Shown here piece after piece: positions 8,443 to 29,800 of a stretch of DNA of 35,370 bases; positions within the stretch are counted from its first letter, which is position 1; each line of letters starts with the position of its first letter. A program made the translations under genes and the position numbers. The notes below the pieces were generated by a model. The model searched no databases and was not told where the DNA came from. It saw nothing but the letters and a program-made list of their open reading frames with translations. The DNA is taken from the IMG/VR virus record IMGVR_UViG_2778261448_000004, positions 1 to 35,370 of that record; one strand, 5' to 3'. Source of the stretch: a virus. Its lineage: Duplodnaviria > Heunggongvirae > Uroviricota > Caudoviricetes.

Positions 8443-8443
8443 C

Positions 8444-11524: not shown

Positions 11525-11757
11525 GCTGCACCTCCGAGATGCTTCATGTTTTTTCCGGAGCGAAAGGCTATAAGCGGCATACTGACGCGGTAATTACGGC
11601 CCAGCGGTTCACAAACCACCTTCTGACATTCACGGTCAACCAGGCTGACACGTAGAACATGCCCTGCAGGCGTGGTGTACCACTGCCCAACTGTAGGAAT
11701 TGATGTTTTTTTACGCTGAAGCAAACGGCAAATATTGAGGATCAACGGATTAAGCAT
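11521..11757 (-). CDS. hypothetical early protein (78 aa)
   Basis: Translationally coupled in a compact operon (overlaps both neighbours); no motif recognised. Confidence 0.5.
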   Translation of the reverse strand: MLNPLILNICRLLQRKKTSIPTVGQWYTTPAGHVLRVSLVDRECQKVVCEPLGRNYRVSMPLIAFRSGKNMKHLGGAA

Positions 11758-12586
11758 GACGATGCCCTCCGCTGATATTCAGGAGACGGTGAATATGAAA
11801 ATTAGCCTTATCCGCCAAACGGATACGTTCAGCCTGCAAGTTAAGAAGGGTTTCTACCAGAACCTGATGCGCCTGCGGATCCGAAAGAGTTACCTTGCGC
11901 AGAGCACGTAGTGCAGTTGTTACATAACTGAGTTTATGTAAGTCTTCATCATTCAGACGAGTGAGGGCTGGGACAGTAGCCATGATGGCAGCCTCCGATA
12001 ACAGTGAATTACCTTCACCACCGGAAACGCCAATTTCGCTGGTGGTGAACTGAACGGGGTTGGCGTAACCGGCGTTATCGGAAACCGGCGCACCTTTCGG
12101 TGCCCCCGTCCAGCCCACCATAATTTGGGTGTGCGCAGACGCAGACGATAAAAAAGACGCTGGCGCGTCATATATCGCCGATAACATTTCCAGGACGCCA
12201 ATCCCGGCACCCGCTTTATAAGGTGCCTGAACAGTGTAACGTCCCGGAATGGCAGAATCAATGTGCTGGTGGTCCTTCACACTCAACAAAATCACGCCTG
12301 AATTTCCACAAAGGACTAAAGCACTCATGCGGGTAGTCTTTGCGAAGATAGATAACGCGCTGTGTTTCTGGCTCCCAACGAATAACATGGACATAAAGCC
12401 CTCTTCCGTCACGAAACCAGCGGTTAAGTTCCTGCACAACTCGCCCCCCACAGTCAGGTAAAGTTCTCTGTGGTTACTTACAGCCAGGTGATTTGGTAAT
12501 CTGCATTCATGCCGTAACAACAGGTGTGCAGCGACACTGACCACCAGCTGTTGCGACAAACGGTTATTTGCCGTTAAACTGTTCAT
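11750..12586 (-). CDS. hypothetical early protein (278 aa)
   Basis: Overlaps both neighbours by a few nt; no Walker motif; position between immunity region and replication gene. Confidence 0.6.
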   Translation of the reverse strand: MNSLTANNRLSQQLVVSVAAHLLLRHECRLPNHLAVSNHRELYLTVGGELCRNLTAGFVTEEGFMSMLFVGSQKHSALSIFAKTTRMSALVLCGNSGVILLSVKDHQHIDSAIPGRYTVQAPYKAGAGIGVLEMLSAIYDAPASFLSSASAHTQIMVGWTGAPKGAPVSDNAGYANPVQFTTSEIGVSGGEGNSLLSEAAIMATVPALTRLNDEDLHKLSYVTTALRALRKVTLSDPQAHQVLVETLLNLQAERIRLADKANFHIHRLLNISGGHRHA

Positions 12587-13146
12587 GCGTTAGTTTCTCC
12601 ACAGACACAAAACGCCACGACGCCCGGAGCTGCACACTCGCGGGCGTCACTCTTTTCTGGAGCGCAAAAGATTTTGTAGACCAGTGCTGCATGCTCCTGG
12701 AGCTTCGAAATTGACAGATACAACTCATCATTAATTGCTGTCTGCTCGTGTGGCTCCACGACCCCATCTTCGATTGCCGAACGAATCTGCTTTGAGTAAT
12801 TCCCGATCTGTTCGATGACTTCCAGCAGGCGCTGGTTTATATCGGCGTTCTCTACTTCCTCAATTTCAGGAAGCGATACAAACACCCCACCAGCAGACTG
12901 TGCGACAGCATCCGCAATGTAGTGAGTGCCAGCCGCGCGCTGTAAAATCATTGCCCATCCCAGCGGGAAAATCTGATCGCCATCTGCACGAAGGCGGTTG
13001 AATAAAGCGTTCTCTGTTACATCCAGCCACTCAGCAGCTTCAGCGTAACCCCCCGGCAACGCCGCGATAGTTTTTCTGACAGCTTTCACGTACCACTCAG
13101 GCTGTTTTTCTACTTTCCAGTGATGCTTACCCACGGTTAGCCTCAT
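12583..13146 (-). CDS. hypothetical early protein (187 aa) in the position lambda uses for cII
   Basis: First gene downstream of the cro-like gene; acidic central region; function not recognised. Confidence 0.6.
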   Translation of the reverse strand: MRLTVGKHHWKVEKQPEWYVKAVRKTIAALPGGYAEAAEWLDVTENALFNRLRADGDQIFPLGWAMILQRAAGTHYIADAVAQSAGGVFVSLPEIEEVENADINQRLLEVIEQIGNYSKQIRSAIEDGVVEPHEQTAINDELYLSISKLQEHAALVYKIFCAPEKSDARECAAPGVVAFCVCGETNA

Positions 13147-13177
13147 CGTTCTGTGGTTAAAAATTGAAGGTGTTCTG

Positions 13178-13378
13178 TTAATCTTTCGGATAGATATCCG
13201 GTCTTAAGTCAGATTTCGTAATTGCACCTGACGTGCATTGCTCAAGTTTTTTAGCCAGCACAAAACTGGCTTTTTTATAACCATTGAAAACCAGCCGTAA
13301 GTAGCCTGGTGTTGAGCCAACTTTTCCGGCCAACTCGCCCTGCTGTTCTTTGGTTAAAGAGTCCCAATACGCTTTCAT
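13178..13378 (-). CDS. Cro-like HTH repressor (66 aa)
   Basis: MKAYWDSLTKEQQGELAGKVGSTPGYLRLVFNGYKKASF... with GGAGG RBS 9 nt upstream of ATG 13378; divergent from the CI-like gene. The 167-aa track ORF is an upstream extension across the operator region. Confidence 0.7.
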   Translation of the reverse strand: MKAYWDSLTKEQQGELAGKVGSTPGYLRLVFNGYKKASFVLAKKLEQCTSGAITKSDLRPDIYPKD

Positions 13379-13468
13379 ACAATATGTACCTCCGGTATAC
13401 ATATTACATGATTGAGATGAACCTTCAAGATACTTGTACCTTATCGGTACAAAGGTTTTAATTTCTTT
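13379..13468. promoter_or_regulatory. immunity-region operator/promoter interval (divergent cI-like and cro-like promoters)
   Basis: 90-bp divergent intergenic region containing the palindrome TTGTACC-N5-GGTACAA (13436-13452) and a further GTACC half-site at 13386-13391. Confidence 0.5.
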
Positions 13469-14143
13469 ATGAAAACAGTCCATGACATCCGGCGGTCTAA
13501 CGCCAGAAAACTGAGAGATGGTGTTGGCGGGAATTCTTCCTTTGCCACCATGATTGATCGCGAGCCAACCCAGACCAGCAGGTTTATGGGAGATGGTGCT
13601 ACTAAAAATATCGGTGACAGCATGGCGCGGCACATCGAAAAATGTTTCGACCTGCCTGTCGGATGGCTTGATCAAGAACACCAGACCACGAACATCACAA
13701 AAAAACCTGATGTTTCAATCACTAACAAACAAATAACGTTAGTCCCTGTCATATCATGGGTACAGGCCGGAGCATGGAAAGAAGTTGGCTATTCTGAGGT
13801 TGATTTGAGCACAGCAGAAACTTACCCCTGCCCTGTACCCTGTGGCGAAATGACTTATATCTTGCGGGTGATTGGTGATTCAATGATTGATGAGTACCGC
13901 CCGGGAGACATGATTTTTGTTGATCCTGAAGTCCCTGCCTGCCACGGTGACGACGTTATTGCATTGATGCACGATACAGGCGAAACCACCTTCAAGCGGT
14001 TGATAGAAGATGGAACACAGCGTTACCTCAAAGCATTAAACCCAAACTGGCCTGAACCTTACATTAAGATCAACGGTAATTGCTCTATAATTGGTACAGT
14101 GATTTTCTCAGGAAAACCAAGAAGATACATAATAAAGGCCTAA
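13469..14143 (+). CDS. CI-like phage repressor with C-terminal S24 (LexA-like) peptidase domain
   Basis: 224 aa; C-terminal VIGDSMIDEYRPGDMIFVDP ... TFKRLIEDG carries the Ser and Lys of the S24 self-cleavage dyad; N-terminal HTH-like region; divergent from cro-like gene. Confidence 0.8.
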   Translation: MKTVHDIRRSNARKLRDGVGGNSSFATMIDREPTQTSRFMGDGATKNIGDSMARHIEKCFDLPVGWLDQEHQTTNITKKPDVSITNKQITLVPVISWVQAGAWKEVGYSEVDLSTAETYPCPVPCGEMTYILRVIGDSMIDEYRPGDMIFVDPEVPACHGDDVIALMHDTGETTFKRLIEDGTQRYLKALNPNWPEPYIKINGNCSIIGTVIFSGKPRRYIIKA

Positions 14144-14154
14144 TAAATATTTAT

Positions 14155-14179
14155 AACCTGCTTCGGCAGGTTTTTTTAT
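14155..14179 (+). terminator. intrinsic terminator after the repressor gene
   Basis: AACCTGC-TTCG-GCAGGTT hairpin followed by TTTTTTT, 12 nt after the cI-like stop codon. Confidence 0.7.
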
Positions 14180-14181
14180 AC

Positions 14182-14209
14182 TTGACAATGTACCCATGAG
14201 ATACATAAT
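14182..14209 (+). promoter_or_regulatory. near-consensus sigma70 promoter with palindrome over the -10
   Basis: TTGACA (14182-14187), 16-nt spacer, CATAAT (14204-14209); the -10 lies inside the inverted repeat GATACAT-A-ATGTATC (candidate operator). Confidence 0.55.
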
Positions 14210-14215
14210 GTATCT

Positions 14216-14809
14216 AAAAGAAACACAACACAGGCAAGATTAAACAAAATTTGGTTGTAACACGGCGTATGGCACATGCGTCGTTAGCGGTCTGGGGACG
14301 TTAAAGGGGACAATCCACTCCTTGCTCGGGCAAACAAACCAGGTAGCCGGAATGTGCAAGTCAATGATGATGCTGATAAGACGCCTAACCAGCGTGGCGA
14401 TTCGGTTTGACGCCTGGGAAGAGACCAGGGTGCAACGATGAGGGCATTTATGGAGCCGTGACAAAGTGTGGTGCCGTAACTGGCTAAGTGCTCTCAGCGT
14501 TGTGGTAATCCGCGAAATGGCGCGGCGGTAAGTATGGCGGGGTTACTCTTTCCCCGTTGAGAACACCGGATTGTCAGGTTGACCATACGCCTGAGTGACA
14601 ACCCCACCACAACAGCCACTGCTTTGGCGGTACCAGTTTGTCCCCTTGCTTCCGGCTGGTACCGCTCTTTTTACAAAACAGAGAAGAGCATCACCGGACG
14701 ACGGGCTCATAACCCAATCCATCCGGGCGGCTGCCACCGCAGGTGTTCTTCTCTGTTTTGTGGAGAAACCAACCGACCTTGCAGGGTCGATATGATGAGG
14801 AGCAGCAAA
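14216..14809 (+). promoter_or_regulatory. ~590-nt structured leader / candidate cis-regulatory RNA with attenuator-like hairpin
   Basis: No convincing ORF with RBS; 10-bp perfect stem GCGGTACCAG/CTGGTACCGC (14627-14665) followed by TCTTTTT; 13-bp perfect inverted repeat CAAAACAGAGAAG (14674-14686) / CTTCTCTGTTTTG (14748-14760); several shorter GC stems. Confidence 0.4.
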
Positions 14810-15172
14810 ATGGCTAGCGAACGCAGTACTGATGTGCAGGCATTTATCGGGGAGCTGGACGGCGGCGTATTTGAAACCAAAATCGGCGCAGTTCTCAGTG
14901 AAGTCGCTTCCGGTGTGATGAACACGAAAACCAAAGGGAAGGTCTCACTCAACCTGGAAATCGAACCATTTGATGAGAACCGTGTGAAAATCAAACACAA
15001 ACTCTCATATGTTCGCCCGACTAACCGCGGGAAAATTTCCGAAGAAGACACCACCGAAACGCCGATGTATGTCAATCGCGGTGGTCGCCTGACTATTCTA
15101 CAGGAAGACCAGGGACAATTACTGACTCTTGCCGGTGAACCTGACGGAAAACTCCGCGCAGCAGGTCATTAA
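14810..15172 (+). CDS. yfdP: hypothetical phage protein, YfdP-like (120 aa)
   Basis: ATG 14810 with GAGGAG RBS; 120 aa; first of a block whose lengths and order (120/274/178 aa) match yfdP-yfdQ-yfdR of E. coli prophage CPS-53 by recollection. Track ORF is a 5' extension. Confidence 0.55.
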   Translation: MASERSTDVQAFIGELDGGVFETKIGAVLSEVASGVMNTKTKGKVSLNLEIEPFDENRVKIKHKLSYVRPTNRGKISEEDTTETPMYVNRGGRLTILQEDQGQLLTLAGEPDGKLRAAGH

Positions 15173-15237
15173 TATCGTTTTTAATAAACTGATTATTTCT
15201 CTCATCACTGAATATTTTTATATAGTGAGGACTTATT

Positions 15238-16062
15238 ATGTCTCAGAACTTAGACGCAACCGCAATTAATCAAATCCATGCCCTTATTTCTGCTCTGGGT
15301 GTTAATGAAATTATCAGTAAGATTGGTGCCGATGCTGTGGCATTGCCTGAGAATTTCCGCATTCATGATCTGGAAAAATTTAATTTAAATCGTTTCCGTT
15401 TCCGTGGTGCGCTTTCCACTGCCAGCATCGATGACTTTACTCGTTATTCTAAAGATCTTGCAGATGAAGGCACCCGCTGCTTTATCGATGCCGATAATAT
15501 GCGTGCCGTCAGTGTGCTTAACCTAGGTACTATTGATGAGCCAGGTCACGCAGATAACACTGCCACTCTCAAACTGAAAAAGACAGCACCGTTCTCTGCT
15601 CTGTTGTCTGTTAACGGCGAGCGTAACTCCCAGAAGTCACTGGCAGAATGGATCGAAGACTGGGCCGACTACCTTGTGGGCTTTGATGCTAATGGTGATG
15701 CCATTCAGGCAACAAAAGCGGCTGCGGCAGTCCGTAAAATCACGATTGAAGCAAACCAGACCGCTGATTTTGAAGACAATGACTTCAGCGGCAAACGCTC
15801 CCTGATGGAGTCTGTCGAAGCGAAGACCAAAGATATTATGCCTGTGGCATTTGAATTTAAATGCGTTCCGTTTGAAGGCCTGAAAGAACGTCCGTTTAAA
15901 TTACGCCTCAGCATTATCACTGGCGATCGTCCTGTACTGGTTCTGCGCATTATTCAGCTGGAAGCAGTGCAGGAAGAAATGGCTAACGAATTTCGTGATC
16001 TGCTTGTTGAGAAATTCAAGGACAGCAAAGTAGAAACCTTTATTGGTACTTTCACCGCCTGA
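15238..16062 (+). CDS. yfdQ: hypothetical phage protein, YfdQ-like (274 aa)
   Basis: 274-aa ORF with ATG start, high coding quality; length and context match YfdQ (recollection; no search run). Confidence 0.55.
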
Positions 16063-16189
16063 TTTCATTACTGCAAATGCCCCTGCGGGGGCATTTATGG
16101 AAACGTAATTGACTCAATAATCGCCGGATGGTGAGGGCTTCCTTTTACCAGAATTCAGCGCGGTGCAGCGCATATACGTGGAGAACAAA

Positions 16190-16726
16190 ATGTCATTTAT
16201 TAAAACTTTTTCCGGGAAGCATTTTTATTATGACAGGATAAATAAAGACGACATCGTTATTAACGATATCGCGGTTTCTCTTTCAAATATCTGTCGCTTT
16301 GCAGGACATCTTTCACATTTCTACAGCGTCGCCCAACATGCGGTGCTTTGCAGCCAACTGGTACCGCAGGAATTTGCTTTTGAAGCGTTAATGCATGATG
16401 CAACAGAAGCGTATTGCCAGGACATCCCGGCGCCACTGAAACGCCTTCTTCCTGACTATAAACGGATGGAAGAAAAAATAGACGCCGTAATCCGTGAGAA
16501 ATACGGGTTACCCCCGGTTATGAGTACCCCCGTGAAATATGCCGATCTCATCATGCTGGCAACCGAACGCCGCGATCTCGGGCTTGATGATGGCTCTTTC
16601 TGGCCTGTGCTGGAAGGTATCCCGGCAACAGAGATGTTCAACGTGATTCCACTGGCTCCAGGCCATGCCTACGGGATGTTTATGGAACGCTTTAACGAAT
16701 TATCGGAGTTACGCAAATGCGCATGA
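16190..16726 (+). CDS. yfdR: HD-domain phosphohydrolase (5'-deoxynucleotidase-like), YfdR-like
   Basis: 178 aa from ATG 16190 (GGAGAA RBS); metal-binding H...HD motif (VAQHAVLCSQ ... ALMHDATEAY). Confidence 0.65.
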   Translation: MSFIKTFSGKHFYYDRINKDDIVINDIAVSLSNICRFAGHLSHFYSVAQHAVLCSQLVPQEFAFEALMHDATEAYCQDIPAPLKRLLPDYKRMEEKIDAVIREKYGLPPVMSTPVKYADLIMLATERRDLGLDDGSFWPVLEGIPATEMFNVIPLAPGHAYGMFMERFNELSELRKCA

Positions 16727-17049
16727 ATGTTTTCGAAATGGAAGGGGTTCTTCGCGGGAAATGTGTACCGCGAGATCTGAAAGTGAATGAAACAAATGCT
16801 GAGTATCTGGTACGTAAATTCGATGCGCTTGAAGCTAAATGTGCGGCTCTGGAAAACAAAGTAATACCAGTGTCAGCTGAACTGCCGCCAGCAAATGAAA
16901 GTGTTCTGTTATTTGATGCTAATGGAGAAGGCTGGCTGATTGGCTGGCGTTCTCTCTGGTACACATGGGGCAAAAAGAAACCGGAGAATGGCAGTGGACA
17001 TTTCAGGTCGGGGACCTTGAAAACGTCAATATCACTCACTGGGCAGTAA
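16717..17049 (+). CDS. hypothetical phage protein (110 aa)
   Basis: ATG with GGAG RBS; overlaps the HD gene stop by 10 nt (translational coupling). Confidence 0.55.
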   Translation: MRMNVFEMEGVLRGKCVPRDLKVNETNAEYLVRKFDALEAKCAALENKVIPVSAELPPANESVLLFDANGEGWLIGWRSLWYTWGKKKPENGSGHFRSGTLKTSISLTGQ

Positions 17050-17074
17050 TGCCGAAAGCACCAGAGACTAAGAA

Positions 17075-17290
17075 ATGAGCGTGATAAAAACTCATACAGG
17101 AATTGTTATCACCCGAGACAGTGAAAAGCGGATGAAATTACATTCCACTGAAACGTCCTGGGTTGCCGGACGTTGTGAATCCTACGACAAAAAGACTGGT
17201 TACCGTTGGGGTGCGCCAAACATGCGTCGCCGTCTGCTCCTGGACAGCATCAGGCCAATAAAACAGGTAGCAACCAGAGAACAAAATTAA
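17075..17290 (+). CDS. hypothetical phage protein (71 aa)
   Basis: ORF in operon context upstream of xis; weak RBS. Confidence 0.4.
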   Translation: MSVIKTHTGIVITRDSEKRMKLHSTETSWVAGRCESYDKKTGYRWGAPNMRRRLLLDSIRPIKQVATREQN

Positions 17291-17349
17291 TTATCAGGAC
17301 TGGAATTTGATATTACTGCCCGTGTGCAGCGGGCTAAGTGGAGAAACAT

Positions 17350-17556
17350 ATGCTGAACCTCGATTGCGTTCCTATCTCAACTTATTGCAAAGAAACTGGC
17401 GAAACTCCTGAAGCAATAAACAAACGTGTACAGCGCGGTGTTTGGCGTGAAGGTGTTCAGGTTTTAAAGGTTGAAGGCGTTAAGGAGAGGTGGATTGATC
17501 TTAGTGAGGTTGCAAAATGGGCCAGACAAAACTGCTCAAACTACCGCGCGGCGTAA
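17350..17556 (+). CDS. excisionase-like protein (Xis)
   Basis: Small basic protein directly upstream of and overlapping the integrase gene; ATG 17350 preceded by GGAG; track ORF starts at an upstream GTG (17338). Confidence 0.6.
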   Translation: MLNLDCVPISTYCKETGETPEAINKRVQRGVWREGVQVLKVEGVKERWIDLSEVAKWARQNCSNYRAA

Positions 17557-18713
17557 CAATCAGAAAACACCGTCAGGGAGAAACGATCAATATAACTTTC
17601 ACCTACAAAGGAGTTAAATGTCGTGAGCCACTTTCCAATCTGGAAGTAACACCAAAGAACATTAAATACGCCGAGCGCACACTCGGCGAAATTCATAATA
17701 AGATCGAAAGGGGAACATTCATTTATGCGGAATATTTTCCCCGTTCTGCTCGTTTGAAAATTTTTGGTAATGCTGCTGCAGGCAAAACGGTAAAAATGTA
17801 CCTGGACGAATACCTTGAAATCTGCGAAACGAGAAAACTTTCACCATCTACGATTGGTGGTTATAAAAAATGCCGTAGTGCGTTAGCCTCACTCCACATT
17901 TGCCCTGCAAGTGAATTAACACCAGCAATCCTGAAAGCGTGGATTCAAAGCCAGAAAACGACCTTAAAAACAATTCGCAACCAGTTATCTTTCCTGCGGT
18001 CAGCACTTGATGAAGCCGTAACCGATGGGGTACTTCAAATTAACCCCGTATCGTTGGTAACTGCTTCGCGCTACCAAAGTGATAAGTCAGAAGTAGAAAG
18101 CAGCTACGTGGTTGATCCGCTATCACCAACAGAAGTTGATGCATTACTAGCAGCAGCCGGAAACAAACAATGGGAGAATCTGTTCCGGTTCGCTATACAT
18201 ACAGGCCTGCGTAGTTCTGAATTATGTGCCCTTCGATGGCGTGATATCGACTTTGTTGGAAAAACTGCCCATGTCCAGAGCGCAAGTGTTGTCGGTGTTA
18301 TCAAAGGGACAAAGACAAAAGCAGGTACTCGTAAAGTTGAACTGACAGAAGAGGCAATGTTGGCGCTGATAAATCAGAAGCCATTTACATTCATGAAGGA
18401 TGCTACTGTCTTTGAAGACCCAAAGACCAATAAGCCTTGGGCAAGTGCTGATGCAATCAGGAAAAAAGCATGGGTGCCAACATTACGGAAAGCAGGTATT
18501 CGATACAGAAATCCATATCAAACTAGGCATACATTCGCCACCAGCCATATCAGCCGAGGAGCAAATCTGTTTTGGCTTGCAGCTCAAATGGGGCATAAAG
18601 GGCCGGAAATGCTTTTCAGGCATTATGGTTCGTATCTCGTAGACTATGATGGCAAGACAGCTTGTAAGGACCAAGTATCAAAAAATCCGGAGAACATGAA
18701 AATTGAGAAGTAA
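17517..18713 (+). CDS. tyrosine integrase of the lambdoid prophage
   Basis: 398 aa; N-terminal arm-binding-type region (LPRGVTIRKHRQGETINITFTYKGVKCRE); C-terminal catalytic region with R...HxxR...Y context (RHTFATSHISRGANLFWLAAQMGHKGPEMLFRHYGSY). Confidence 0.85.
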   Translation: MGQTKLLKLPRGVTIRKHRQGETINITFTYKGVKCREPLSNLEVTPKNIKYAERTLGEIHNKIERGTFIYAEYFPRSARLKIFGNAAAGKTVKMYLDEYLEICETRKLSPSTIGGYKKCRSALASLHICPASELTPAILKAWIQSQKTTLKTIRNQLSFLRSALDEAVTDGVLQINPVSLVTASRYQSDKSEVESSYVVDPLSPTEVDALLAAAGNKQWENLFRFAIHTGLRSSELCALRWRDIDFVGKTAHVQSASVVGVIKGTKTKAGTRKVELTEEAMLALINQKPFTFMKDATVFEDPKTNKPWASADAIRKKAWVPTLRKAGIRYRNPYQTRHTFATSHISRGANLFWLAAQMGHKGPEMLFRHYGSYLVDYDGKTACKDQVSKNPENMKIEK

Positions 18714-18903
18714 AACGCCCGATAGCACTAGCCCCCCTTCGCAAAACAGTAAAGCTTACAAGAATGTTAGCAGGATGATGAGGATAGTGTACAATGGTTT
18801 TAGTGTGCATTAAATGCAAAGATTTGACGTTTTTTGTCAAATTTGTGCTATAAAATCACTTTTAGTGGTTTTTAAGCTATGGGAAGTTAAAAGGGTATAA
18901 ATT

Positions 18904-20169
18904 ATGTTGATTGAGTTTACAGTACAAAACTATAAATCTATTTCAGAGAAACAAACACTGAGTTTAGTTGCATCAAAACTTAACGATTTGCCTAATAATC
19001 TGTTCAGTATTGATGAACCTAAATCTCTTGAATTGCTTAAAAGTGCTGTGATTTATGGCCCTAATGCTGCCGGAAAATCAAACATTATTAACGCTATTAC
19101 AACTATGGCTGAACTTATTGTCCGGTCTGCTACAGGTTATAAAAGTGGTGATAAACTTGATATCACGCCTTTTAGACTAGACTCAAAGAAGATTAATCAA
19201 CCATCTGAATTTGAAATTAACTTTATTTCCGAAGGCATCAGATACCAGTATGGTTTTTCTGCAACAGAAGATTTTATTCACGACGAATGGTTATTTGCAT
19301 TCCCCAAAGGCAGACCACAAAAATGGTTTTTACGTCTATGGGATGAAGAAAAACAAACCCATGAATGGGAGTTGGGGCCATCGTTGACAGGAGAAAAACA
19401 AACATGGTTGAAATCAACTAGGCCTAATGCGCTCTTTCTTTCTACAGCGGTACAATTAAACAGTGTACAACTAAAACCTGTATACGATTGGTTTTATTAC
19501 AAAGTTAAATTTACTGAATTAACAGGTTGGGATAGTGATTACAGTGCAAAGCAATGCTTAAATGATAAGAAAGATGAGATTCTCAATTTTTTAAAAGCTG
19601 CCGATGTAGGTATTGATGACATTCATGTAACAAAAGAAAAATTCAATCCCAATGCTCTTCCTGATGATATGCCTGCAGCCATCAAGGAACTAGTGATTAA
19701 GAATATGCAAGGCAAGGAAGAATATGTCATTAAAACACTTCATAATAATGAGGATGGAGAGCCAATTCCATTCGATTTAAAAGATGAATCGCATGGAACT
19801 AGAAAAATCTTTAGTTTCGCGGGTCCCTTATCACATTCACTCGAGACAGGAAACATCCTGTTTATTGATGAATTAAATGATAACTTACACCCCAAATTAG
19901 TTGAGTTTATTGTAGGTTTATTTCACGATAAAAATATCAATAAGAATGGTGCCCAGTTAATCTTTACAACTCATGAGACGTCTATTTTAAATCAAGATGT
20001 TTTCAGACGAGATCAGATTTGGTTTGTAGAAAAAGACAATTCAAAGCAAACAAATCTTTTCCCACTTACGGATTTTAGTCCAAGAAAAGGAAGGGAGAAT
20101 TTAGAAGCTTCTTATCTTGACGGTAGATATGGGGCTTTACCACTCATTGGGAAATGGGAGAGATATTAA
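18904..20169 (+). CDS. ABC-type AAA ATPase (AbiLi/AriA-like)
   Basis: 421 aa; Walker A GPNAAGKSN; Walker B ILFIDELNDNLHP; D-loop/H-loop region IFTTHE; low-GC; start close to an AT-rich upstream region. Confidence 0.8.
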   Translation: MLIEFTVQNYKSISEKQTLSLVASKLNDLPNNLFSIDEPKSLELLKSAVIYGPNAAGKSNIINAITTMAELIVRSATGYKSGDKLDITPFRLDSKKINQPSEFEINFISEGIRYQYGFSATEDFIHDEWLFAFPKGRPQKWFLRLWDEEKQTHEWELGPSLTGEKQTWLKSTRPNALFLSTAVQLNSVQLKPVYDWFYYKVKFTELTGWDSDYSAKQCLNDKKDEILNFLKAADVGIDDIHVTKEKFNPNALPDDMPAAIKELVIKNMQGKEEYVIKTLHNNEDGEPIPFDLKDESHGTRKIFSFAGPLSHSLETGNILFIDELNDNLHPKLVEFIVGLFHDKNINKNGAQLIFTTHETSILNQDVFRRDQIWFVEKDNSKQTNLFPLTDFSPRKGRENLEASYLDGRYGALPLIGKWERY

Positions 20170-20855
20170 TGGGAAGCGAAGATCTGTTCAAAAAAAGAAA
20201 GGCTCGGCGTAATAATGAATTCAAACGAGTTAGTAAAGCACGAGCTCAAATGAAGAAAATTCTTATCGTCTGTGAGGGAGAGAAGACTGAGCCCGCATAT
20301 TTTACAGATTTTATAAAACATTGCCGTATAAGCACGGCAAGCATAGTTGAGATTTCTGGAGAGTGCGGCTCAAGCCCTATGAATGTGGTATCTTGGGCAA
20401 AAGAAAAATATAATACGGAAAAAAAAAGGAGCGACCCTTATGATAAGGTTTATTGTGTCTTTGATAGAGACGCTCACCCTAACTATGATGAAGCTCTTAG
20501 CAGGATTAATTCCTTAAATCCAAAAGGGATTTTTGTTGCTATAACTTCCATACCATGTTTCGAGTACTGGCTGATACTACATTTTGGATACACCCGAAAA
20601 TCATTTTCACCTCAGAAAGGCAAAAGTGAAGGCGCACAAATGCTAGCTGAGTTAAAAAAATACATGCCAGATTATGAGAAAAAGGCATCAGGTGTATTTA
20701 ATAAATTGCAAGATCGGCTCGATACGGCATTAATCAATGCTAAAAGAGTCGAAGATGCCGCCAAAAAAGACGGTTCGATAAATCCTTCAACTAAAGTTGG
20801 CGCTTTGATTACAGATCTAATTAACATTCGTGATGACTTTGAAAATGAGAAGTAA
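20169..20855 (+). CDS. RloB-like / TOPRIM (OLD-family) protein, partner of the ATPase
   Basis: N-terminal motif ILIVCEGEKTEPAYF and downstream VFDRD acidic motif typical of RloB/TOPRIM proteins; ATG 20169 overlaps the ATPase stop (TAATG) with GGGAGAG RBS; alternative in-frame ATG at 20154. Confidence 0.75.
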   Translation: MGSEDLFKKRKARRNNEFKRVSKARAQMKKILIVCEGEKTEPAYFTDFIKHCRISTASIVEISGECGSSPMNVVSWAKEKYNTEKKRSDPYDKVYCVFDRDAHPNYDEALSRINSLNPKGIFVAITSIPCFEYWLILHFGYTRKSFSPQKGKSEGAQMLAELKKYMPDYEKKASGVFNKLQDRLDTALINAKRVEDAAKKDGSINPSTKVGALITDLINIRDDFENEK

Positions 20856-20980
20856 AAATAACATGTCATGATGTAGCGACGGCAGCATGTTTAAGTTCAA
20901 ATGGCAAAGTGTACGCGAAGTATACGCGGATCAAAAACAATAGAAAAAACGTATATTTTACAAAAGATTATATAAATTTT

Positions 20981-21011
20981 GACGCGGGTTCAACTCCCGC
21001 CAGCTCCACCA
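20981..21011 (+). other. ssrA: att core: 31-nt duplicate of the ssrA (tmRNA) 3' end
   Basis: GACGCGGGTTCAACTCCCGCCAGCTCCACCA equals the 3' terminus of E. coli tmRNA including CCA; the sequence upstream is not tmRNA, so this is an integration-site repeat rather than an intact gene. Confidence 0.8.
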
Positions 21012-21057
21012 AAATTCTCCATCGGTGATTACCAGAGTCATCCGATGAAGTCCTAAG

Positions 21058-21091
21058 AGCCCGCACGGCGCAAGCCCTGCGGGCTTTTTTG
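21058..21091 (+). terminator. intrinsic terminator (native ssrA terminator)
   Basis: AGCCCGCA ... TGCGGGCT stem followed by TTTTTT. Confidence 0.6.
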
Positions 21092-21216: not shown

Positions 21217-22458
21217 ATGGCAAGACAAACCAAACCTCTATCCGTTAAAGAAATAGAATCAGCCAAACCCAAGGAGGCGGACTACGTTCTCTATGATGGC
21301 GATGGCCTTGAGCTACTCATTAAATCCAGCGGGAGTAAAATCTGGCAGTTTCGCTACATTCGCCCTGTCACCAAGAAACGAGCAAAGAAGAGCATAGGCT
21401 CCTACCCGTCAGTTACCCTTGCCGATGCCAGAAACTACCGTGCAGAGTCCCGCTCACTACTGGCTAAACAGATCGATCCGCAGGAACATCAGCAAGAACA
21501 ATTGCGCAGTTCGCTGGAAGCCAAAACCAACACTTTCCAACTCGTAGCTGAACGTTGGTGGAATGTGAAGAAAGCCAGTGTGACAGAGGACTATGCGGAA
21601 GATATCTGGCGCTCTCTTGAAAGAGACGTCTTTCCTGCGATTGGCGACGTTAGCGTTACAGATATTAAAGCTCATACACTGGTTCAGGCCGTACAACCGG
21701 TTCAGGCCAGAGGAGCACTGGAAACTGTTCGTCGCCTGTGCCAACGTATTAATGAGGTCATGATCTATGCCCAGAACACAGGGCTGATTGATGCTGTTCC
21801 CAGCGTTAATATCGGTAAAGCCTTCGAGAAGCCTCAGAAAAAGAACATGCCCAGCATTCGACCGGATCAGCTACCTCAGTTAATGCAGACGATGCGAACA
21901 GCCAGCATTAGCCTTTCCACACGCTGCCTGTTCATGTGGCAACTTCTTACTATTACCCGCCCTGCCGAAGCGGCTGAAGCTCTCTGGGAAGAGGTAGACA
22001 TAGAAGCGCGAGAGTGGAAGATTCCTGCAGCACGCATGAAAATGAACCGCGACCATACTGTTCCATTGTCAGATGAAGCAATTGCGATACTAGAGATGAT
22101 GAAGCCGTTAAGTGGAAATCGAGAATTTATCTTTCCCAGCCGCATCAAGCCAAACCAGCCGATGAACAGTCAGACCGTAAACGCATCGCTAAAACGCGCA
22201 GGTTTTGGTGGGGTGCTCGTTTCACACGGCCTGCGATCTATCGCCAGTACAGCCCTTAATGAGCAGGGATTTCCACCTGATGTTATTGAGGCTGCACTTG
22301 CTCATGTGGATAAGAATGAGGTTCGTCGTGCGTATAACCGTAGTGATTATCTTGAGCAGCGACGGCCTATGATGCAGTGGTGGGCTGATTTTGTGATGGC
22401 TGCAGATCACGGTAGTATGATTGAAGGAGGGATAAAGGCAATGCGGTTAGTTGGATGA
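21217..22458 (+). CDS. intA: P4-family tyrosine integrase (CP4-57 IntA-like) adjacent to ssrA
   Basis: 413 aa starting MARQTKPLSVKEIESAKPKEADYVLYDGDGLELLIKSSGSKIWQFRY, the typical P4-type integrase N-terminus; about 205 bp downstream of the tmRNA 3' end, as for ssrA-intA in E. coli K-12 (recollection). Confidence 0.8.
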   Translation: MARQTKPLSVKEIESAKPKEADYVLYDGDGLELLIKSSGSKIWQFRYIRPVTKKRAKKSIGSYPSVTLADARNYRAESRSLLAKQIDPQEHQQEQLRSSLEAKTNTFQLVAERWWNVKKASVTEDYAEDIWRSLERDVFPAIGDVSVTDIKAHTLVQAVQPVQARGALETVRRLCQRINEVMIYAQNTGLIDAVPSVNIGKAFEKPQKKNMPSIRPDQLPQLMQTMRTASISLSTRCLFMWQLLTITRPAEAAEALWEEVDIEAREWKIPAARMKMNRDHTVPLSDEAIAILEMMKPLSGNREFIFPSRIKPNQPMNSQTVNASLKRAGFGGVLVSHGLRSIASTALNEQGFPPDVIEAALAHVDKNEVRRAYNRSDYLEQRRPMMQWWADFVMAADHGSMIEGGIKAMRLVG

Positions 22459-22596: not shown

Positions 22597-25500
22597 CTAT
22601 TTTAAATCAGCCTTTGCGGCTCGAATATCTGCGTTTTTTGCTGAGTATTCCCATTCGTCAGCGATTCTAAATAGCATTGCAGAAGTACGGACGCAGTGGG
22701 GCATTGAATTTGCCCATTCTCGGTACTGCTCAGCTAATATCCTTTCTTGGTTTCCACCTTCGTAACGCATACGAGCAAATACCCCCCTTTTATTGTACCT
22801 ACCAATTTGTATACCTTGCTCTAACTCATCAGAAGATAATATTTCAATGATGTGCCGAATTGCTTCATGTGGCCAGGAATTATCTACTGAGCTATTAGGG
22901 GCATGTGCCAGAATTTTTCCTATTACATGATCAGTGATTTCTTGGCGATGATGCAATTTTGCTAAATGGCGTACATTCTCACACCAATCTTCAAGTTTAT
23001 CTTGATCAATTTCATTGTCTATCTGCCCTGGTAGTATTCGTAATTTTTCAAGTAATCTGTATATAGAAGTAGCTCTTTTAACTTCCAACTCCGATGGTTC
23101 TGTTTGTTCATCTTCGTCACTACGATATACAATACATATTGCTTCTATAAAAACCTCTGGCTTTTTCATCATTAGACGATGCAGGATAAGTGGCTCATCG
23201 CTATCCGGAAAACAAGGCAAGTAGGTCATTTCTTTAAATGCCAAATCTGTTTCAGAAACATCGTTACGTTGTTTGAGTTCATCAAAAACTTTTTTTACAT
23301 AGTACGATAGCATTGTATCAAATTGGATATCCTGGCTATTTATTTCTTTAACGACTATATCTAGAAGATATAAAAGTGTTGTAGATGGAATCTCAGAAAG
23401 GCGTTGATTTGCTGATATAATAGCAGCAAGACCCCGGCCCCTTTCTATATATTTATCCATAAGAACAAATAAATCCGAAGTTTTACCCATCATTGCAATG
23501 GGTTGTTTTTGCAACCAATATTTTTCGTTGATGTTATCTTCAAACCCTTCAATAATGCTCCATATCTCTTGTGAGTCTCTTAACGATGCTAAGATTTTCC
23601 CAGCCCTATCAGGGGTAATTTTAAACTGTTTAAAATACACTTTTATTTTATTAAGCCATTCAGCACCAAAGCATTCAACACCATATTGCATTAACAACCC
23701 ACAAACTTCATCAATATTTTTTTTGTTGTTAATAAGCATTACAAACAAATCATTTAATTTTTCTTCATCCAACGAGAGTGCTGATATATGCCTTGCTGCA
23801 ATAAAAACATTATTAACTTGTTGAAAAAGGTCTTTCACCCCAGACAAACCTAAAGTAAAGTATATTTCCCTAAGTTTTTCACTTCGCATTTCTTCGACAG
23901 AAGAAAAAATTCCGCCAGCATTTTCAATTGACTCTTCAATATCAGAATCCCAATCATTGAAAATCCATAAACTGGCTCTAACCATGTCAATTGGTTTATA
24001 ATTATCAAGTATTTTCGCTATTTTTTCCATAGACTCAAATTTAAATGCCCAGTTCGCATCTGAATATTTTTTATGGCGAGAATACTCATGACGCAAAGCC
24101 TCCCATACGATGAACTGATCCTCTTCAGTTTGTTGAGAAAGGCAAAGTTCAAGATGAGAAAGTGTTTCATCTATTGCATTCTCAGGGAATGAGCTTAAAT
24201 GAGAGATTAGGATTTCCCATCTTGTTGGGAGTATACCTGCAAGTTTAATTGCTTCTTGGATAATAAAGATTTGCCCCTCCCAAACAACGCCCCACGTTAG
24301 TTTTTCTACATCTTTATCCGACTCTCTGAACTTCATTTTTTGGTTTTGATCAGAGGTATCATGGGAGCGAGGAAGGAGATTTTGTAACAAACTCCACCCA
24401 ATACTAGGAACAATAGTGATAATTTTTTTTATAATTGCATTTCTAACTTTTACTGGTGCCCATGTATTAGGAGACCATGCCAGAAAAATGGTTCTTAAAC
24501 TATTAAGAGGGCGATCTGAGTAAGTTCCTCCGGGATCTATTACAGCGAGTTTTGCAAGACAGATTGCAGCGCGTAATAGATATGTTTGTTCCCAAGCCAA
24601 GGCTTCCAATGCCCATTTTAATCCATGATAATGACTTCGAGGAGTTAACAGCCCTTTATCTTCATTGAATATTGGAGCAATCATTTCCCCATTGCCCTTA
24701 AGCAATTGCTCAAGGGCATCAAGGAAAGGGCCAGGGGCAGCTTCTGCCAGCAGCGGAAGTTGATCTCGCAAACTAACAAATAGTCGATGGTCGTTAGCAA
24801 GTCCCGGAATACTCTGAACTATTTTGTTAACAAAATCTTGGGGTGTCATACCAGTAACCCGGAATTCGGCCTGTTCATGTAATATTGCCATATGTAGCAA
24901 AACTGTTGTCATTCCATTACGTAACCACGAGCTATAAGACGTTTTAATACCATTGTCAGGTACAAACAGATCTTCGGCCTTTGGTGGTTCAGGAATATAG
25001 GAAAAAACCTCTCTTACGGCCTTCTCAAAACGCTCCAGGTGTTCTTCACCCAGCAAATAGCCTAAATGTACAAAAGCATCTACCGACGAACGCAATGACC
25101 AAATATCATCTACTCGGTCAATTGGAGAATCGCGGCGCTTTGTTAATAGCCTTAATGGATTTTCAACTTGAGAATAGTCTGTATAGCCAGCTAGTTGCTT
25201 GAGAATTAACTTATCTTTCTCTGAACATGTACTCCATGCACCAGCTAATAAAGCAGGGAGCAACTCAGGGCTGTCTTTCCATTCAGGTGATTCAGCCGTG
25301 CTACTTGATATCTGGCGAGCCAAAACAGACAAACTTCGGCCACACTGCCGCGCTATTTGATAACTATTATCTGAATCAAACCCCATAGATTCAAGAGCCT
25401 TACCTAAAGATATACTATCTGGGCGGATCAGAAGTTCGTGATCAGTTCGTGTTTCATCGGCTCCGGCACTTACTACTGTGATAGATGCTTGCTGTAATAA

Positions 25501-26343
25501 ACCGGCTAAAGCTCTTGCTCGATCACGTGGTAAGAAGATCATTCCTCTTTTTCCAGAAAGCTGTCTTGCAGCATCATCCGTATCAATAATTAGTGCTCGA
25601 CTTTGAAAGGAATGTCGAAGTTCCGCTTCAGTGGTTCTGATAGCTGCAATCGCAAAAGCAATAACCTCATCCGGAGAATCTGCAGCTAAAGATATTTTTC
25701 GACCATTTTCTCGTAACTCATTCAGAAAACGCTCTTTTTGCTTTTCTCTCCCCGCCAGCAAGACTGCTTCAGTTAAAGGGGGATTAAATTTAGTGGAAAA
25801 TTCATCCCAAAACTCCTTAATGCTTCTAACACCAACCTGTGGCATTAGCTCAAGATGGTAGCGAGCGTAGTAAGCAGCTACAGCAGGGCAAACACCGAGC
25901 CAATCTTCAAGCATAGAACCATCAATTAATTTGATGTCTTTCCACTTACCACTATTGCGTTTCTCTTGTAGCCAGTCTTCAAGCTTTACCTTAGGATTAT
26001 CCCATGTTCTTAATGAAGCGAAAACAAAAGTAGTCTTTAGACGTATCTCTGGAGCAACTTCGCGTGTTCTTTTTTCGTAATCAAAGTTAGCTTTATCAAG
26101 CAATTTTTCATTAACACCAAATTCCCAGAATGAGTCGCCATCAGGAACATAGGGGGCCACCCCCTCGGCTTTAAGTACACCGTCATAACCTCTAACCTGT
26201 CCCTTATCACCATTAGGAAATCTAATTTCAGTAATACTGTTAGCCGTTGCACGTATAAGATCAGCGATTAGTGCTGGAAAAATAACTTTTGCAGGAATAG
26301 AATCTGCCCATTGCTGAAGGTTAAGTGCTTTTATCCATTTCAT
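22597..26343 (-). CDS. giant hypothetical protein (1248 aa), no canonical P-loop; low-GC island cargo
   Basis: Single uninterrupted ORF with ATG and GGAG RBS; N-terminal segment with a PDGD motif (GVAPYVPDGDSFWEFGVNEK); rest predicted helical; R-x5-H (RHLAKLH) near C-terminus. Function not recognisable. Confidence 0.8.
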   Translation of the reverse strand: MKWIKALNLQQWADSIPAKVIFPALIADLIRATANSITEIRFPNGDKGQVRGYDGVLKAEGVAPYVPDGDSFWEFGVNEKLLDKANFDYEKRTREVAPEIRLKTTFVFASLRTWDNPKVKLEDWLQEKRNSGKWKDIKLIDGSMLEDWLGVCPAVAAYYARYHLELMPQVGVRSIKEFWDEFSTKFNPPLTEAVLLAGREKQKERFLNELRENGRKISLAADSPDEVIAFAIAAIRTTEAELRHSFQSRALIIDTDDAARQLSGKRGMIFLPRDRARALAGLLQQASITVVSAGADETRTDHELLIRPDSISLGKALESMGFDSDNSYQIARQCGRSLSVLARQISSSTAESPEWKDSPELLPALLAGAWSTCSEKDKLILKQLAGYTDYSQVENPLRLLTKRRDSPIDRVDDIWSLRSSVDAFVHLGYLLGEEHLERFEKAVREVFSYIPEPPKAEDLFVPDNGIKTSYSSWLRNGMTTVLLHMAILHEQAEFRVTGMTPQDFVNKIVQSIPGLANDHRLFVSLRDQLPLLAEAAPGPFLDALEQLLKGNGEMIAPIFNEDKGLLTPRSHYHGLKWALEALAWEQTYLLRAAICLAKLAVIDPGGTYSDRPLNSLRTIFLAWSPNTWAPVKVRNAIIKKIITIVPSIGWSLLQNLLPRSHDTSDQNQKMKFRESDKDVEKLTWGVVWEGQIFIIQEAIKLAGILPTRWEILISHLSSFPENAIDETLSHLELCLSQQTEEDQFIVWEALRHEYSRHKKYSDANWAFKFESMEKIAKILDNYKPIDMVRASLWIFNDWDSDIEESIENAGGIFSSVEEMRSEKLREIYFTLGLSGVKDLFQQVNNVFIAARHISALSLDEEKLNDLFVMLINNKKNIDEVCGLLMQYGVECFGAEWLNKIKVYFKQFKITPDRAGKILASLRDSQEIWSIIEGFEDNINEKYWLQKQPIAMMGKTSDLFVLMDKYIERGRGLAAIISANQRLSEIPSTTLLYLLDIVVKEINSQDIQFDTMLSYYVKKVFDELKQRNDVSETDLAFKEMTYLPCFPDSDEPLILHRLMMKKPEVFIEAICIVYRSDEDEQTEPSELEVKRATSIYRLLEKLRILPGQIDNEIDQDKLEDWCENVRHLAKLHHRQEITDHVIGKILAHAPNSSVDNSWPHEAIRHIIEILSSDELEQGIQIGRYNKRGVFARMRYEGGNQERILAEQYREWANSMPHCVRTSAMLFRIADEWEYSAKNADIRAAKADLK

Positions 26344-26810: not shown

Positions 26811-29800
26811 GTGGCAATCTTTGACATTGAAAAGGACGAATTACTTCGGCTCTCCGATATCCAGCTGGAAGAGCTGATCGCTCGGCTAGCAGAAGCTGAA
26901 GTGGCAATGCACGGCCATAGCCCAGCATGTGTAAATTGGTCTGGTTCAATTACAGCCCCTGACGGAGGAATTGACATCCATGTTCAGGTTCCAATTGATC
27001 AACTGAAAGCAGGCTTTCTTGTAAGACCTGATACGGTCTTTCAGGCAAAGAAACATAAGATGCCTAAGTCTGCAATTGAGAGGGAAATTGGCACCGGCAA
27101 AGCACTTTCTCCCATCATTTCTGAACAAGCCAGAAAGCAAGGCAGTTACATCATTGTCAGCCTGGGTGATGATTGCTCGCCGTCAGGAAAGAAGGATCGT
27201 CTCAAAGCGATGAGGGATGCAGTAAAAGATGATCCTAACGAAAGTTATCTTCATCTTGATTTCTACGACCGCTCCAAACTCATCCAATGGTTGCGCCAAC
27301 ATCCATCAGTCATGCTGTGGGTAAAAGCAAAGCTTGGGCAAGGGTATTCCGGTTGGCAACCCTACGGAGCCTGGAGCAATCCACCACAAGGTGTTATAGA
27401 CACTTTAATCTCAGCCCCAGGCGTAACCATTACTTTACCATCGGGAAAGGGGCAAAAACTCAAAATTGATGAAGCAATTAACCCAATGCGAGCACTGATC
27501 CGTTCGACAAACAAGGCTGTTCGTATTACAGGATTGTCTGGTGTTGGGAAGACTCGAATCGTTCAGGCGCTCTTTGATGAAACTGTTGGAACAGATGCGC
27601 TTGACCGAACAGTAGCTATTTATGTTGATACTGGCTATGAGCCAGTACCGTCGGCTACAGCAATGCTTGATAACCTGCTCGCTGAAGGCCGGCGAGCAAT
27701 TATGATCCTTGATAATTGCCCATCAGAACTCCATGCTTCGCTTGCCAGCAAAGTATCAGCCGCAGGGAAAGAAGTAAGTCTCATCACGATCGAGTACGAC
27801 ATTAGGGATGACAAACCACAGACAACTGAGGTCATCCACATTGAGACAGATGGTCCAGACGTGGCAGAGCAACTTCTTATCCGTCGCTTCCCTTCTATTG
27901 GTCAGAATAATGCCCGTCGGATTGCAGAGTTCGCAGATGGGAATGCAAGAGTGGCTTTGGCTATAGCGGAAAGAGTGGAAGAAGGTGAGAGTTTAGCCCT
28001 ACTTTCAGATGCGCAGTTGTTTAATCGCTTGTTTGAACAACGTAATCATCCCGACGGCCATTTACGGGAGCAAGCTGAAATATTGTCACTGGTGTATTCG
28101 TTCTCGATATCTAGTCCAGATGCAGCTACCGATGAACTGGAAATATTGGGTGTGCTCTCTGGGTATCCCAAAATCCAGTTATTCAAAGCTGTTACGAAGT
28201 TGATGGAACGTCACATTGTTCAGAAAAGATCCCACTGGAGAGCCATCCTTCCCCATGCCATTGCTAACAAGTTGGCAGCATCTGCACTTAATAGTATTCC
28301 GATTGATCAACTTAGAACGACCTTTGAAGCTCCGGATCGGCAACGATTATTGATGTCGTTCGCGCACAGGTTGGGACTATTGCATAGCCATGCTGTGGCT
28401 AAAGAGATTGTTGAAGCTTGGTTACAGCCCGAAGGGCTGCTTGGAAAAATAATAGACCTAGATGATGTATCGACACGCATTCTAAATTATATCGCTCCAG
28501 TTGCCCCAGGAGCTTTGCTTGAGAGGATTGAAGAAACGCTTGTTACGTCTAATTTTGAGCATTTTAAATCACGCTACAACCCACAACGAACAGCAATTAT
28601 CAAATTGTTGCAGTTACTTGCATATGAATCGAAATACTTTGAACGATGCATTAAGCTCTTAATCCGTATCGCAGACCAGGAAAGCGCGAGCAATAATTAT
28701 GATTCGGCTCGAAATAAGATAAAGAGGTTTTTCCAACCTTATCTATCCGGTACCCATGCCTCTTTAGAACAACGTGTTGCGATCATGAATGAATGCATTG
28801 ATTCAAGTATGGCCGAACGTAGAAGGATGGGGATCGAAATGCTTGAAACTGCTCTCGGCGGACCTCCGTGGACAGGATTCGGAATTAATGAGTTTGGTGC
28901 TAGGCCAAGAGATTATGGATTTCGACCCAGTTACGATGAACTTGTTGCGTGGCTATTCGCCTTCATCGATATTTTGGTGAGATTAGGAACCTCAGGAGTG
29001 CCCGAGCTTGAAGATGATGCCAGGCGGATCTTGGCTGATAAATTTCGCTGGATTTGGCGTCATGGAGGAATAAGGTCAAAATTAATTGATGCGGCTCGTA
29101 AGTTACATGCCCATCGCCCTTGGGGTGAAGGCTGGAAAGCTGTCCGCTCAACAATCTACTTTTTCCATACAAAAAGAAAAGATAACGAAGACGTAGAACC
29201 ATTGCCGGAAATACTTGTGACATTGGAACGAGAATTAGAACCTAAAGACTTGGTTTCGGCAATCATGGTTTATGTACTCAGTAATAGGCGCGATTTTTGG
29301 GCTCTAGATGCTGATTATGAGCACCAAGGAACTAATAAATTCAGTGAAATCAGGAAAATACTTTGTGCCAAAGCTTTCAAGTTGGGGCACGAATTTGCAG
29401 TATCTTCCCATGGACTTGATGAGTTGTGCCCTAATCTTTTTTTGCGGGATGGAATGCCGTATCGCGTCGAATTTGGTAAAGGCTTAGCTAACGGGGCTCC
29501 TGACCTACGAATTTATTGGCAACAACTAGTCATTCAATTGGATCTACAACACAAATCTCAACGTGATGTTTCGGTCATTCGAGGTTTCATTGAAGAGACT
29601 CATTCTATCGATTCAGCATTAGCGCAGGAACTGCTCGATCAGTGTGCACAACATTCCGAACTTCGATTCGAATTAGTCAACCTTCATCCTTGGCAGGAGT
29701 TTACTGAAATCGATCTGGATCGTTGCATGTCGCTTCTGGATGACTCTGACATACAGCCCCATATGTATGGGGCAATTCTGTGGGGTGAGCAATTCTCTAA

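Follow-up and report, generated by a model that had tools for sequence, protein, structure and literature searches.

An AbiL/RloAB-type gene pair, probable anti-phage cargo of a lambdoid prophage at ssrA in Escherichia coli

In this work, we describe a pair of adjoining genes found in a stretch of 35,370 nucleotides (IMG/VR virus record IMGVR_UViG_2778261448_000004, positions 1 to 35,370; the whole stretch is called the window below), which is Escherichia coli DNA and holds the pair within a lambdoid prophage integrated at ssrA, the tmRNA gene. The pair encodes an ABC ATPase and a small protein of the RloB family and, judged by profile comparison, can be assigned with high confidence to the AbiL/RloAB type of two-gene modules, not to PARIS. 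The explanation that best accommodates all observations, and which we hold to be very likely, is an anti-phage module of this type that the prophage bears, as exchangeable cargo, in its int-attP interval; the anti-phage function in itself, as far as sequence can indicate it, is probable. From family and context we infer that it would serve in superinfection defence.

Gene pair and family assignment

The first gene, abiLi/rloA-like, spans 18904-20169 (+) and encodes a 421-residue ABC ATPase (Rad50/SMC-like, AAA_21), the presumed sensor and regulator; the second, abiLii/rloB, spans 20169-20855 (+) and encodes a 228-residue protein of the RloB family, presumably the nuclease effector, in which TOPRIM-like motifs are found. 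In a mechanical list of open reading frames (ORFs) the second gene starts at 20154, but it truly begins with the ATG at 20169, since all 49 aligned homologues begin with MG[ST]xxLF and RefSeq annotates a protein of 228 residues (687 nucleotides). The genes have one base in common, within a TAATG junction (20167-20171) formed by the ATPase stop codon TAA (20167-20169) and the rloB ATG (20169-20171), and are translationally coupled through this overlap. Ahead of each start lies a purine-rich stretch resembling a Shine-Dalgarno sequence, AAGGG (18891-18895) for the ATPase gene and GGGAGAG (20157-20163) for rloB. With 36.0% GC, the pair stands below both the window as a whole (45.3%) and the prophage backbone at 7500-17500 (49.8%). 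A low-GC two-gene operon with overlapping stop and start codons had been described in an initial annotation, made by reading the letters only, and all of these features are found where it placed them.

The motifs for ATP binding and hydrolysis are intact in the first protein: Walker A (GPNAAGKS, residues 52-59), the signature (SHGTRK, 296-301), Walker B (ILFIDE, 318-323) and the H-loop (TTH, 355-357) are each invariant across 49 homologues, 55-86% identical. The RloB protein contains the motifs CEGEKTE (residues 35-41) and DRD (residues 99-101); across its 49 homologues, 43-80% identical, invariant residues include C35, E36, G37, K39, T40, E41, D99 and D101 and, further on, H103, S127, P129, F131, E132, W134 and H138. 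Walker A and CEGEKTE, on which the initial annotation had relied, are thus both present.

Assignment to a family follows from profile searches. The ATPase is matched by the PADLOC AbiLi profile PDLC02335 over residues 1-418 (E-value 4.2e-101, 336 bits), and by the Pfam domains AAA_21 (1.3e-38) and AAA_15 (9e-9). The second protein is matched by Pfam RloB (PF13707; 1e-39, 137 bits, cut-off 31.5) along the full profile, 1-195 of 195, and by PADLOC AbiLii (PDLC02337, 4.9e-29). With family E-values between 1e-38 and 1e-101, a chance match can be discounted. AbiLi and AbiLii profiles matching adjoining genes on one strand are what defines AbiL operationally, and the combination of RloB with an AAA_21-type ATPase is what characterizes RloAB at the protein level; the location within a type I restriction-modification (R-M) operon, which also belongs to RloAB, is not found here. 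In RefSeq, the first gene is labelled "AAA family ATPase" and the second "RloB family protein", and one homologue of the ATPase, P0228, carries the UniRef name RloA. In PHROGs, the two proteins fall into phrog_5836 and phrog_16255, both phage families of unknown function. The initial annotation had proposed a pair of ABC ATPase and RloB/TOPRIM protein of AbiL or PARIS type, to be abandoned if neither AbiL nor PARIS profiles, nor a phage-resistance phenotype, could be found: both AbiL profiles match, as just described.

The same annotation had left the choice between AbiL and PARIS undecided, suggesting a comparison with the RloB and DUF4435 profiles, and PARIS deserves a closer look. In PARIS, a hexamer of AriA sequesters a DUF4435 TOPRIM tRNase, which is released by Ocr-like anti-restriction proteins. 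The architecture is the same, a split ABC ATPase followed by a small TOPRIM-type effector; PARIS is moreover often borne by phages or satellites, and its toxin-antitoxin-like logic of sequestration is probably another likeness. The ATPase also matches the PADLOC AriA models PDLC02980 (2e-37, the next-best PADLOC match after AbiLi) and, much more weakly, the specific PDLC02979 (1.9e-9). The PDLC02980 match, however, has the same coordinates as that of Pfam AAA_21 (48-363 of the protein, 2-304 of 304 of the profile) and almost the same E-value. We take it for a match generic to ATPases and not for evidence of PARIS, no clear specific AriA signal being detected; AbiLi beats it by 64 orders of magnitude. 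In the second protein, Pfam gave no match to DUF4435 (PF14491), Toprim or Toprim_Old even at E<=10, and no AriB model is among its PADLOC matches. At the structural level, AriA and AriB chains are not among the top 50-60 matches of either predicted model, and AbiLii superposes poorly on AriB in published work (PMC13064643). Because the AbiLi, AbiLii and RloB profiles match, while DUF4435 and AriB do not, the profile searches decide for AbiL/RloAB; membership in PARIS was rejected for the missing DUF4435, and is highly improbable.

Related systems were evaluated in the same way. An AlphaFold2 model of the ATPase (predicted local distance difference test, pLDDT, 88.2) resembles the heads of Rad50, SMC, SbcC and PtuA (E-values 4e-11 to 1e-7), the closest folds being those of Rad50 and PtuA (9e91, 8sux, 8eea; 5e-10 to 1e-8). 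Septu (PtuA/PtuB) and the PtuAB of retron Ec83 share this fold, but matches to PtuA at the profile level are weak, NCBIfam giving for the ATPase only sub-threshold matches to PtuA (25 bits, cut-off 500) and to the retron Eco8 effector, and the partner there is an HNH nuclease, while here it is RloB/TOPRIM-like. Septu was accordingly ruled out, the second protein having an RloB domain only and no PtuB HNH. An ABC ATPase is combined with a TOPRIM-type nuclease also in the OLD family, in P2 Old (class 1) as in GajA of Gabija (class 2), and the ATPase profile aligns with P2 Old (probability 64%) in the region that holds the signature, Walker B and H-loop; there, however, one polypeptide holds both parts, which are two separate ORFs here, and no UvrD-like helicase corresponding to GajB adjoins the pair, so that both class 1 OLD and Gabija were excluded.

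The model of the RloB protein (pLDDT 85.8) features a beta-alpha-beta-alpha-beta-alpha-beta core, followed by a helical C-terminal half. E36 stands at the end of strand 1 (residues 29-36), and D99 and D101 at the end of strand 3 (residues 93-99): in the predicted structure, this placement of a Glu and a DxD is the TOPRIM arrangement. Among the structural matches of the model, generic Rossmann-like folds, such as lumazine synthase, outscore nucleases, the latter being represented by the OLD-family structures 6p74 and 6nk8 and by GajA (8u7i); Foldseek comparison with the PDB produced nothing at E<=1e-3. Searches of PDB sequences, with the RloB protein or with the profile of its 49 sequences, returned only designed helical proteins, at E>0.01, and no solved structure of any RloB-family protein was found by either the sequence or the structure searches of the PDB. 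Alignment by hhalign of the RloB profile to the single P2 Old sequence gave a probability of 0.3% and no TOPRIM alignment; since a template of one sequence is weak, this is no argument against TOPRIM.

A known system of close similarity is AbiL of the Lactococcus lactis plasmid pND861, likewise composed of two adjoining, co-oriented genes, for an AAA_21/Rad50-like ABC ATPase and then an RloB-family protein. This likeness is read through the PADLOC AbiLi and AbiLii profiles. Both modules reside on a mobile element, a plasmid for the prototype and the int-att slot of a prophage in a Gram-negative host for the present pair.

The int-att segment as cargo slot

The pair lies between the prophage integrase gene and the right boundary of the prophage. 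The former encodes a tyrosine integrase (17517..18713, +; Pfam Arm-DNA-bind_2 5e-23, Phage_integrase 5e-16); the latter is marked by the attR core (20981..21012, +), in which the 3' end of ssrA is repeated exactly over 32 bp, namely its last 31 nucleotides and one further base. Downstream of the pair, the native intrinsic terminator of ssrA, a hairpin with a T-run at 21072..21086 (+), is the first site of terminator type, and no terminator or stable structure was found between the rloB stop codon and the att core (z = 0.0). Neither ARAGORN nor Rfam identifies a tmRNA in the window, since it contains just the 32-bp 3' core of ssrA, the complete gene lying outside. The whole of ssrA can be seen in NZ_CP149559, a near-identical genome, where it lies at the far end of a lambdoid prophage of roughly 45 kb; the genes of this prophage include those for a Q antiterminator, RusA, lysis, terminase and portal, together with lambda-like tail genes.

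Of 5426 complete E. coli genomes, 412 contain the integrase but only 15 the pair, a 16th genome having an allele at 67.5%; in the 15 genomes, which are diverse, the allele is at least 99.8% identical. In the 412 genomes, Megablast matches to the integrase gene reach no further than nucleotide 1112-1152 of its 1197, and aligned int 3' ends part from each other beyond about 18645-18655, so that the last ~20 codons of int, from about 18650, are already part of the variable module. On the other side, the matches H11-H15 end at query positions 2298-2303, equivalent to 21011-21016 of the window, by the att core. Relatives hold other genes in the same place: a 577-residue AAA family ATPase and a DNA adenine methylase in E. 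coli 2014C-3655 and NWU_3 (loci L002 and L004, 6226-8938), a 259-residue hypothetical protein in L003 (6215-6994) and two hypothetical genes on the opposite strand in strain CFT073 (L005, 6187-7375). The same ssrA core follows the cargo in all four of these loci, as it follows the homologous pair of Silvania confinis (L011), where the layout of int, pair and ssrA core is conserved and the two proteins are 86% and 77% identical to those of the window. Because the integrase matches stop or diverge there, and relatives carry other genes ahead of the ssrA core, the int-att interval is a variable cargo slot, and the module extends from about 18650 to 20970. The initial annotation had placed the pair in such a slot, and comparison with prophages having the same integrase bears this out.

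Candidate expression signals are found in the gap of 190 bp between int and the pair, from which the pair would be expressed in the lysogen by a promoter of its own. A candidate sigma-70 promoter at 18767..18795 (+), with TTAGCA, a 17-nucleotide spacer and TACAAT, has 9 of 12 consensus matches; this promoter-like site is kept upstream of the Silvania confinis homologue, while the flanking intergenic DNA is not. Between it and the start codon, an inverted repeat, TTGAC-N7-GTCAA (18824..18840, +), may be a candidate operator, as suggested by its sequence, and a similar element, TTGACA-N6-TGTCA, is found in the Silvania locus. An alternative extended -10 element, TGcTATAAA, can be read at 18846-18854 (+).

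Homologous pairs in other genomes

A search with a profile built from the RloB alignment led to 571 confirmed genomic loci, and the counts given here refer to the best 80 of the 571. In all 80, an AbiLi-like ATPase gene is found immediately upstream of RloB, and pairwise identities of the ATPase correlate with those of RloB (r = 0.79; in a Mantel test, none of 999 permutations reached the observed value): the pair is therefore an obligate, co-evolving unit. The family is large, an exhaustive RloB profile search at E<=1e-3 yielding 10,751 clusters (50% identity); the 150 best representatives are all 144-318 residues long, none of them being fused to an ATPase.

Apart from the pair itself, the neighbourhoods of the 80 loci are heterogeneous. 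Within 7 kb, a type I HsdR is encoded in 7 of them and some R-M-like gene in 17, while 63 contain none; the chance of a random gene having such an R-M neighbour is estimated by us, not computed, at well under 1%. These figures derive from clustering and iterated hidden Markov models, and, as the clusters were built from the loci themselves, divergent R-M genes are undercounted and unrelated methyltransferases may have been counted. A single HsdM/S/R query set had detected next to none, given the great diversity of these families. The pair adjoins hsdR in several loci, and in about 10% of the 80 it is placed beside or inside a type I R-M operon, as in classic RloAB. It lies within a type I operon in L006-L009, L012, L030 and L039, the order being hsdS-pair-hsdR in L006-L009, and L014 and L036 also have it in a type I R-M location. 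The homologues located between hsdS and hsdR are about 46% (RloB) and about 55% (ATPase) identical to the proteins of the window.

Four of the R-M-embedded loci (L030, L012, L014 and L039) also contain a conserved ORF of 179 residues beside the pair (cluster 5), which in L030 is immediately upstream of the ATPase gene (5995-6534). A conserved ORF of 235 residues (cluster 3) recurs in the same four loci and in L022, and is found downstream of hsdR in L012.

The RloA and RloB proteins were reportedly described by Miller et al. in 2005 as "restriction-linked ORFs" in type I R-M loci of Campylobacter jejuni. The present copy, although matched end to end by the Pfam family named after RloB, is free-standing, with no hsd genes beside it, as are about 80% of its closest genomic homologues. 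The linkage suggests that the pair might guard restriction, firing once the host type I R-M system is put out of action by an anti-restriction protein of a phage (Ocr, ArdA or Arn-like DNA mimics). Such a trigger is plausible because close homologues are linked to R-M, in the operon positions and at the frequencies given above, and one ATPase homologue is named RloA; furthermore, Deep et al. propose a synergy of RloAB with type I R-M, on the precedent of PARIS. The neighbours of the pair in the window, on the other hand, are int and att, 63 of the 80 homologous loci have no R-M-like neighbour (divergent ones possibly being missed), and a trigger is known for no AbiL or RloAB system. We consider this reading unlikely as it stands. 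As in PARIS, though with an unrelated TOPRIM effector, the free-standing prophage copy could be a trans-acting anti-anti-restriction sentinel, which would sense DNA-mimic inhibitors and respond with cleavage of tRNA by RloB, a proposal to which we give an equally small likelihood. Since the action would be in trans from the prophage, this reading refines the preferred explanation, an AbiL/RloAB-type module carried as prophage cargo, and is compatible with it.

Homologous pairs are also found on other mobile elements. In the Klebsiella P2-like phage ST13-OXA48phi12.1 (L092, 3734-5720), a pair with an RloB 44% identical to ours is located between the replication genes and the portal gene, which is the position of the old/tin defence hotspot of P2; P2 Old, too, is prophage cargo. 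Related pairs, at about 34% identity, are carried by mobilizable plasmids of 3.7-3.9 kb in E. coli and Salmonella (H98-H109), of whose coding capacity they must occupy a large share. Residence in defence hotspots is thus recurrent.

The plasmid-borne pairs make a stabilizing role plausible, and the pair may accordingly be regarded as a toxin-antitoxin-like addiction module of the prophage or its cargo, with RloB as toxin, the ATPase as antitoxin and no significant anti-phage role. NetFlax places pairs of AAA and TOPRIM_OLD/RloB proteins in the type II toxin-antitoxin network, and in its assays TOPRIM_OLD toxins are neutralised by related AAA partners (PMC10440598). The lactococcal prototype, however, confers phage resistance (PMC13064643; PMC10440598), and the pair occurs at the P2 old/tin hotspot and within R-M operons; moreover, an ATPase of 421 residues with fully conserved catalytic motifs would be costly as a mere antitoxin. 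Toxin-antitoxin behaviour and defence are in any case compatible, as exemplified by PARIS (PMC10802264). Addiction as the chief role appears quite improbable, and defence remains the preferred function.

Possible mode of action and other defence genes

Published work groups AbiL with PARIS, OLD, Gabija and MADS as systems of ABC ATPase and TOPRIM protein (PMC11464382; PMC12409363), and by analogy with these a mechanism of sequestration and release, with an RNA target, can be tentatively proposed. The ATPase would assemble with RloB and hold it inactive; a product or a replication intermediate of a superinfecting phage would alter the state of the ATPase; RloB, thus freed or activated, would cut nucleic acid, and abortive infection would protect the lysogen population and, with it, the resident prophage. 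In PARIS, AriA sequesters AriB, which is released upon binding of Ocr and cuts tRNA-Lys (PMC11464382, PMC10802264), and P2 Old is reported to cleave the anticodon stem-loops of tRNAs (preprint 10.64898/2026.07.10.737580): on this analogy, tRNA or another RNA is the most probable target of RloB.

Candidate docking peptides for the assembly may be found at the ends of the two proteins. The C-terminal tail of the ATPase (about 390-421) is among its most conserved segments, with S392, P393, K395, R397, E398, E401, Y404, L405, G407, R408, Y409, G410 and P413 invariant, yet it is modelled with a pLDDT of 55-73. In the N-terminal tail of RloB (residues 1-28; pLDDT 54-66), likewise among the most conserved segments of its protein, M1, G2 and R20 are invariant, and L6 and F7 at least 90% conserved. 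That these tails dock the two proteins to each other, and are possibly linker relics of an OLD-like fused ancestor, is a speculation prompted by the models.

GajA of Gabija is a DNA nuclease, and the RloB effector might, like GajA and like OLD in vitro, nick or degrade phage or host DNA instead of acting as an RNase. The nucleases among the structural matches of RloB are indeed OLD-family enzymes characterized on DNA (6p74, 6nk8) and GajA (8u7i), and RloB loci often adjoin DNA-targeting R-M systems. Outside Gabija, however, both systems of ABC ATPase and TOPRIM protein for which the target in vivo is documented, PARIS and P2 Old, cleave tRNA, and lactococcal AbiL reportedly acts after phage transcription (PMC13064643). 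A DNA target is thus somewhat unlikely, though less so than the restriction guard considered above.

Several points weigh against the explanation of the pair as an anti-phage module acting in this way. The promoter is a consensus match only, and the region contains fewer promoter-like sites than shuffled controls. The literature search, whose coverage left out most subscription journals, found no paper testing an AbiL/RloAB pair from E. coli by experiment, and phenotype, expression or biochemical data on the present pair or any close homologue were not found in the searchable literature. According to the 2024 PARIS papers and a 2026 lactococcal review, the mechanism of AbiL/RloAB is unknown (PMC10802264; PMC13064643). 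Finally, since predicted structures set AbiL and RloAB apart from PARIS (PMC13064643; PMC10802264), the PARIS mechanism may not transfer.

Other known or candidate defence genes, on both sides of the pair, add to its defence context. A second low-GC (0.32-0.35) insert of two genes in the same prophage, at 5463-6491 (+) and 6499-7074 (+), encodes proteins of 342 and 191 residues, which have no Pfam domain and match the PADLOC candidate system PDC-M53 (A 1.3e-31, B 1.7e-54). Downstream of the ssrA terminator, a P4-type integrase gene (21217-22458) marks a second island, which contains a complete PD-Lambda-4 system, as identified by PADLOC: component A at 26811-30662 (+; 1283 residues, 2530 bits) and component B at 30708-31454 (+; 248 residues, 544 bits), both without Pfam domains. 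As PD-Lambda-4 sits in this second island, the ssrA locus is a composite of two mobile elements, each with defence genes. Between the island integrase and PD-Lambda-4, and thereby in the position of a defence-island gene, lies a large uncharacterised ORF of 1248 residues (22597-26343, -; GC 0.33-0.43) with no match in Pfam or PADLOC, at whose position NZ_CP149559 carries different genes. Rfam identifies a C4 antisense RNA and isrK in the prophage (12038-12226, -) and isrC in the downstream island (33640-33762, +), which are ordinary small RNAs of prophages and islands.

Standard defence finders would label the pair AbiL: the annotation is correct and useful, but is not a discovery, and leaves the current understanding unchanged. 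The locus illustrates the int-to-att segment of ssrA-integrating lambdoid phages as an exchangeable slot for defence genes, and the E. coli prophage allele, intact and near-identical in 15 unrelated strains, is a convenient genetic system for the study of AbiL/RloAB. If the pair were a sentinel of anti-restriction proteins, this would explain the repeated insertion of the subfamily between hsdS and hsdR, and would make the E. coli allele a tractable model for AbiL/RloAB, including the possible docking interface formed by the conserved tails of the two proteins, C-terminal in the ATPase and N-terminal in RloB.

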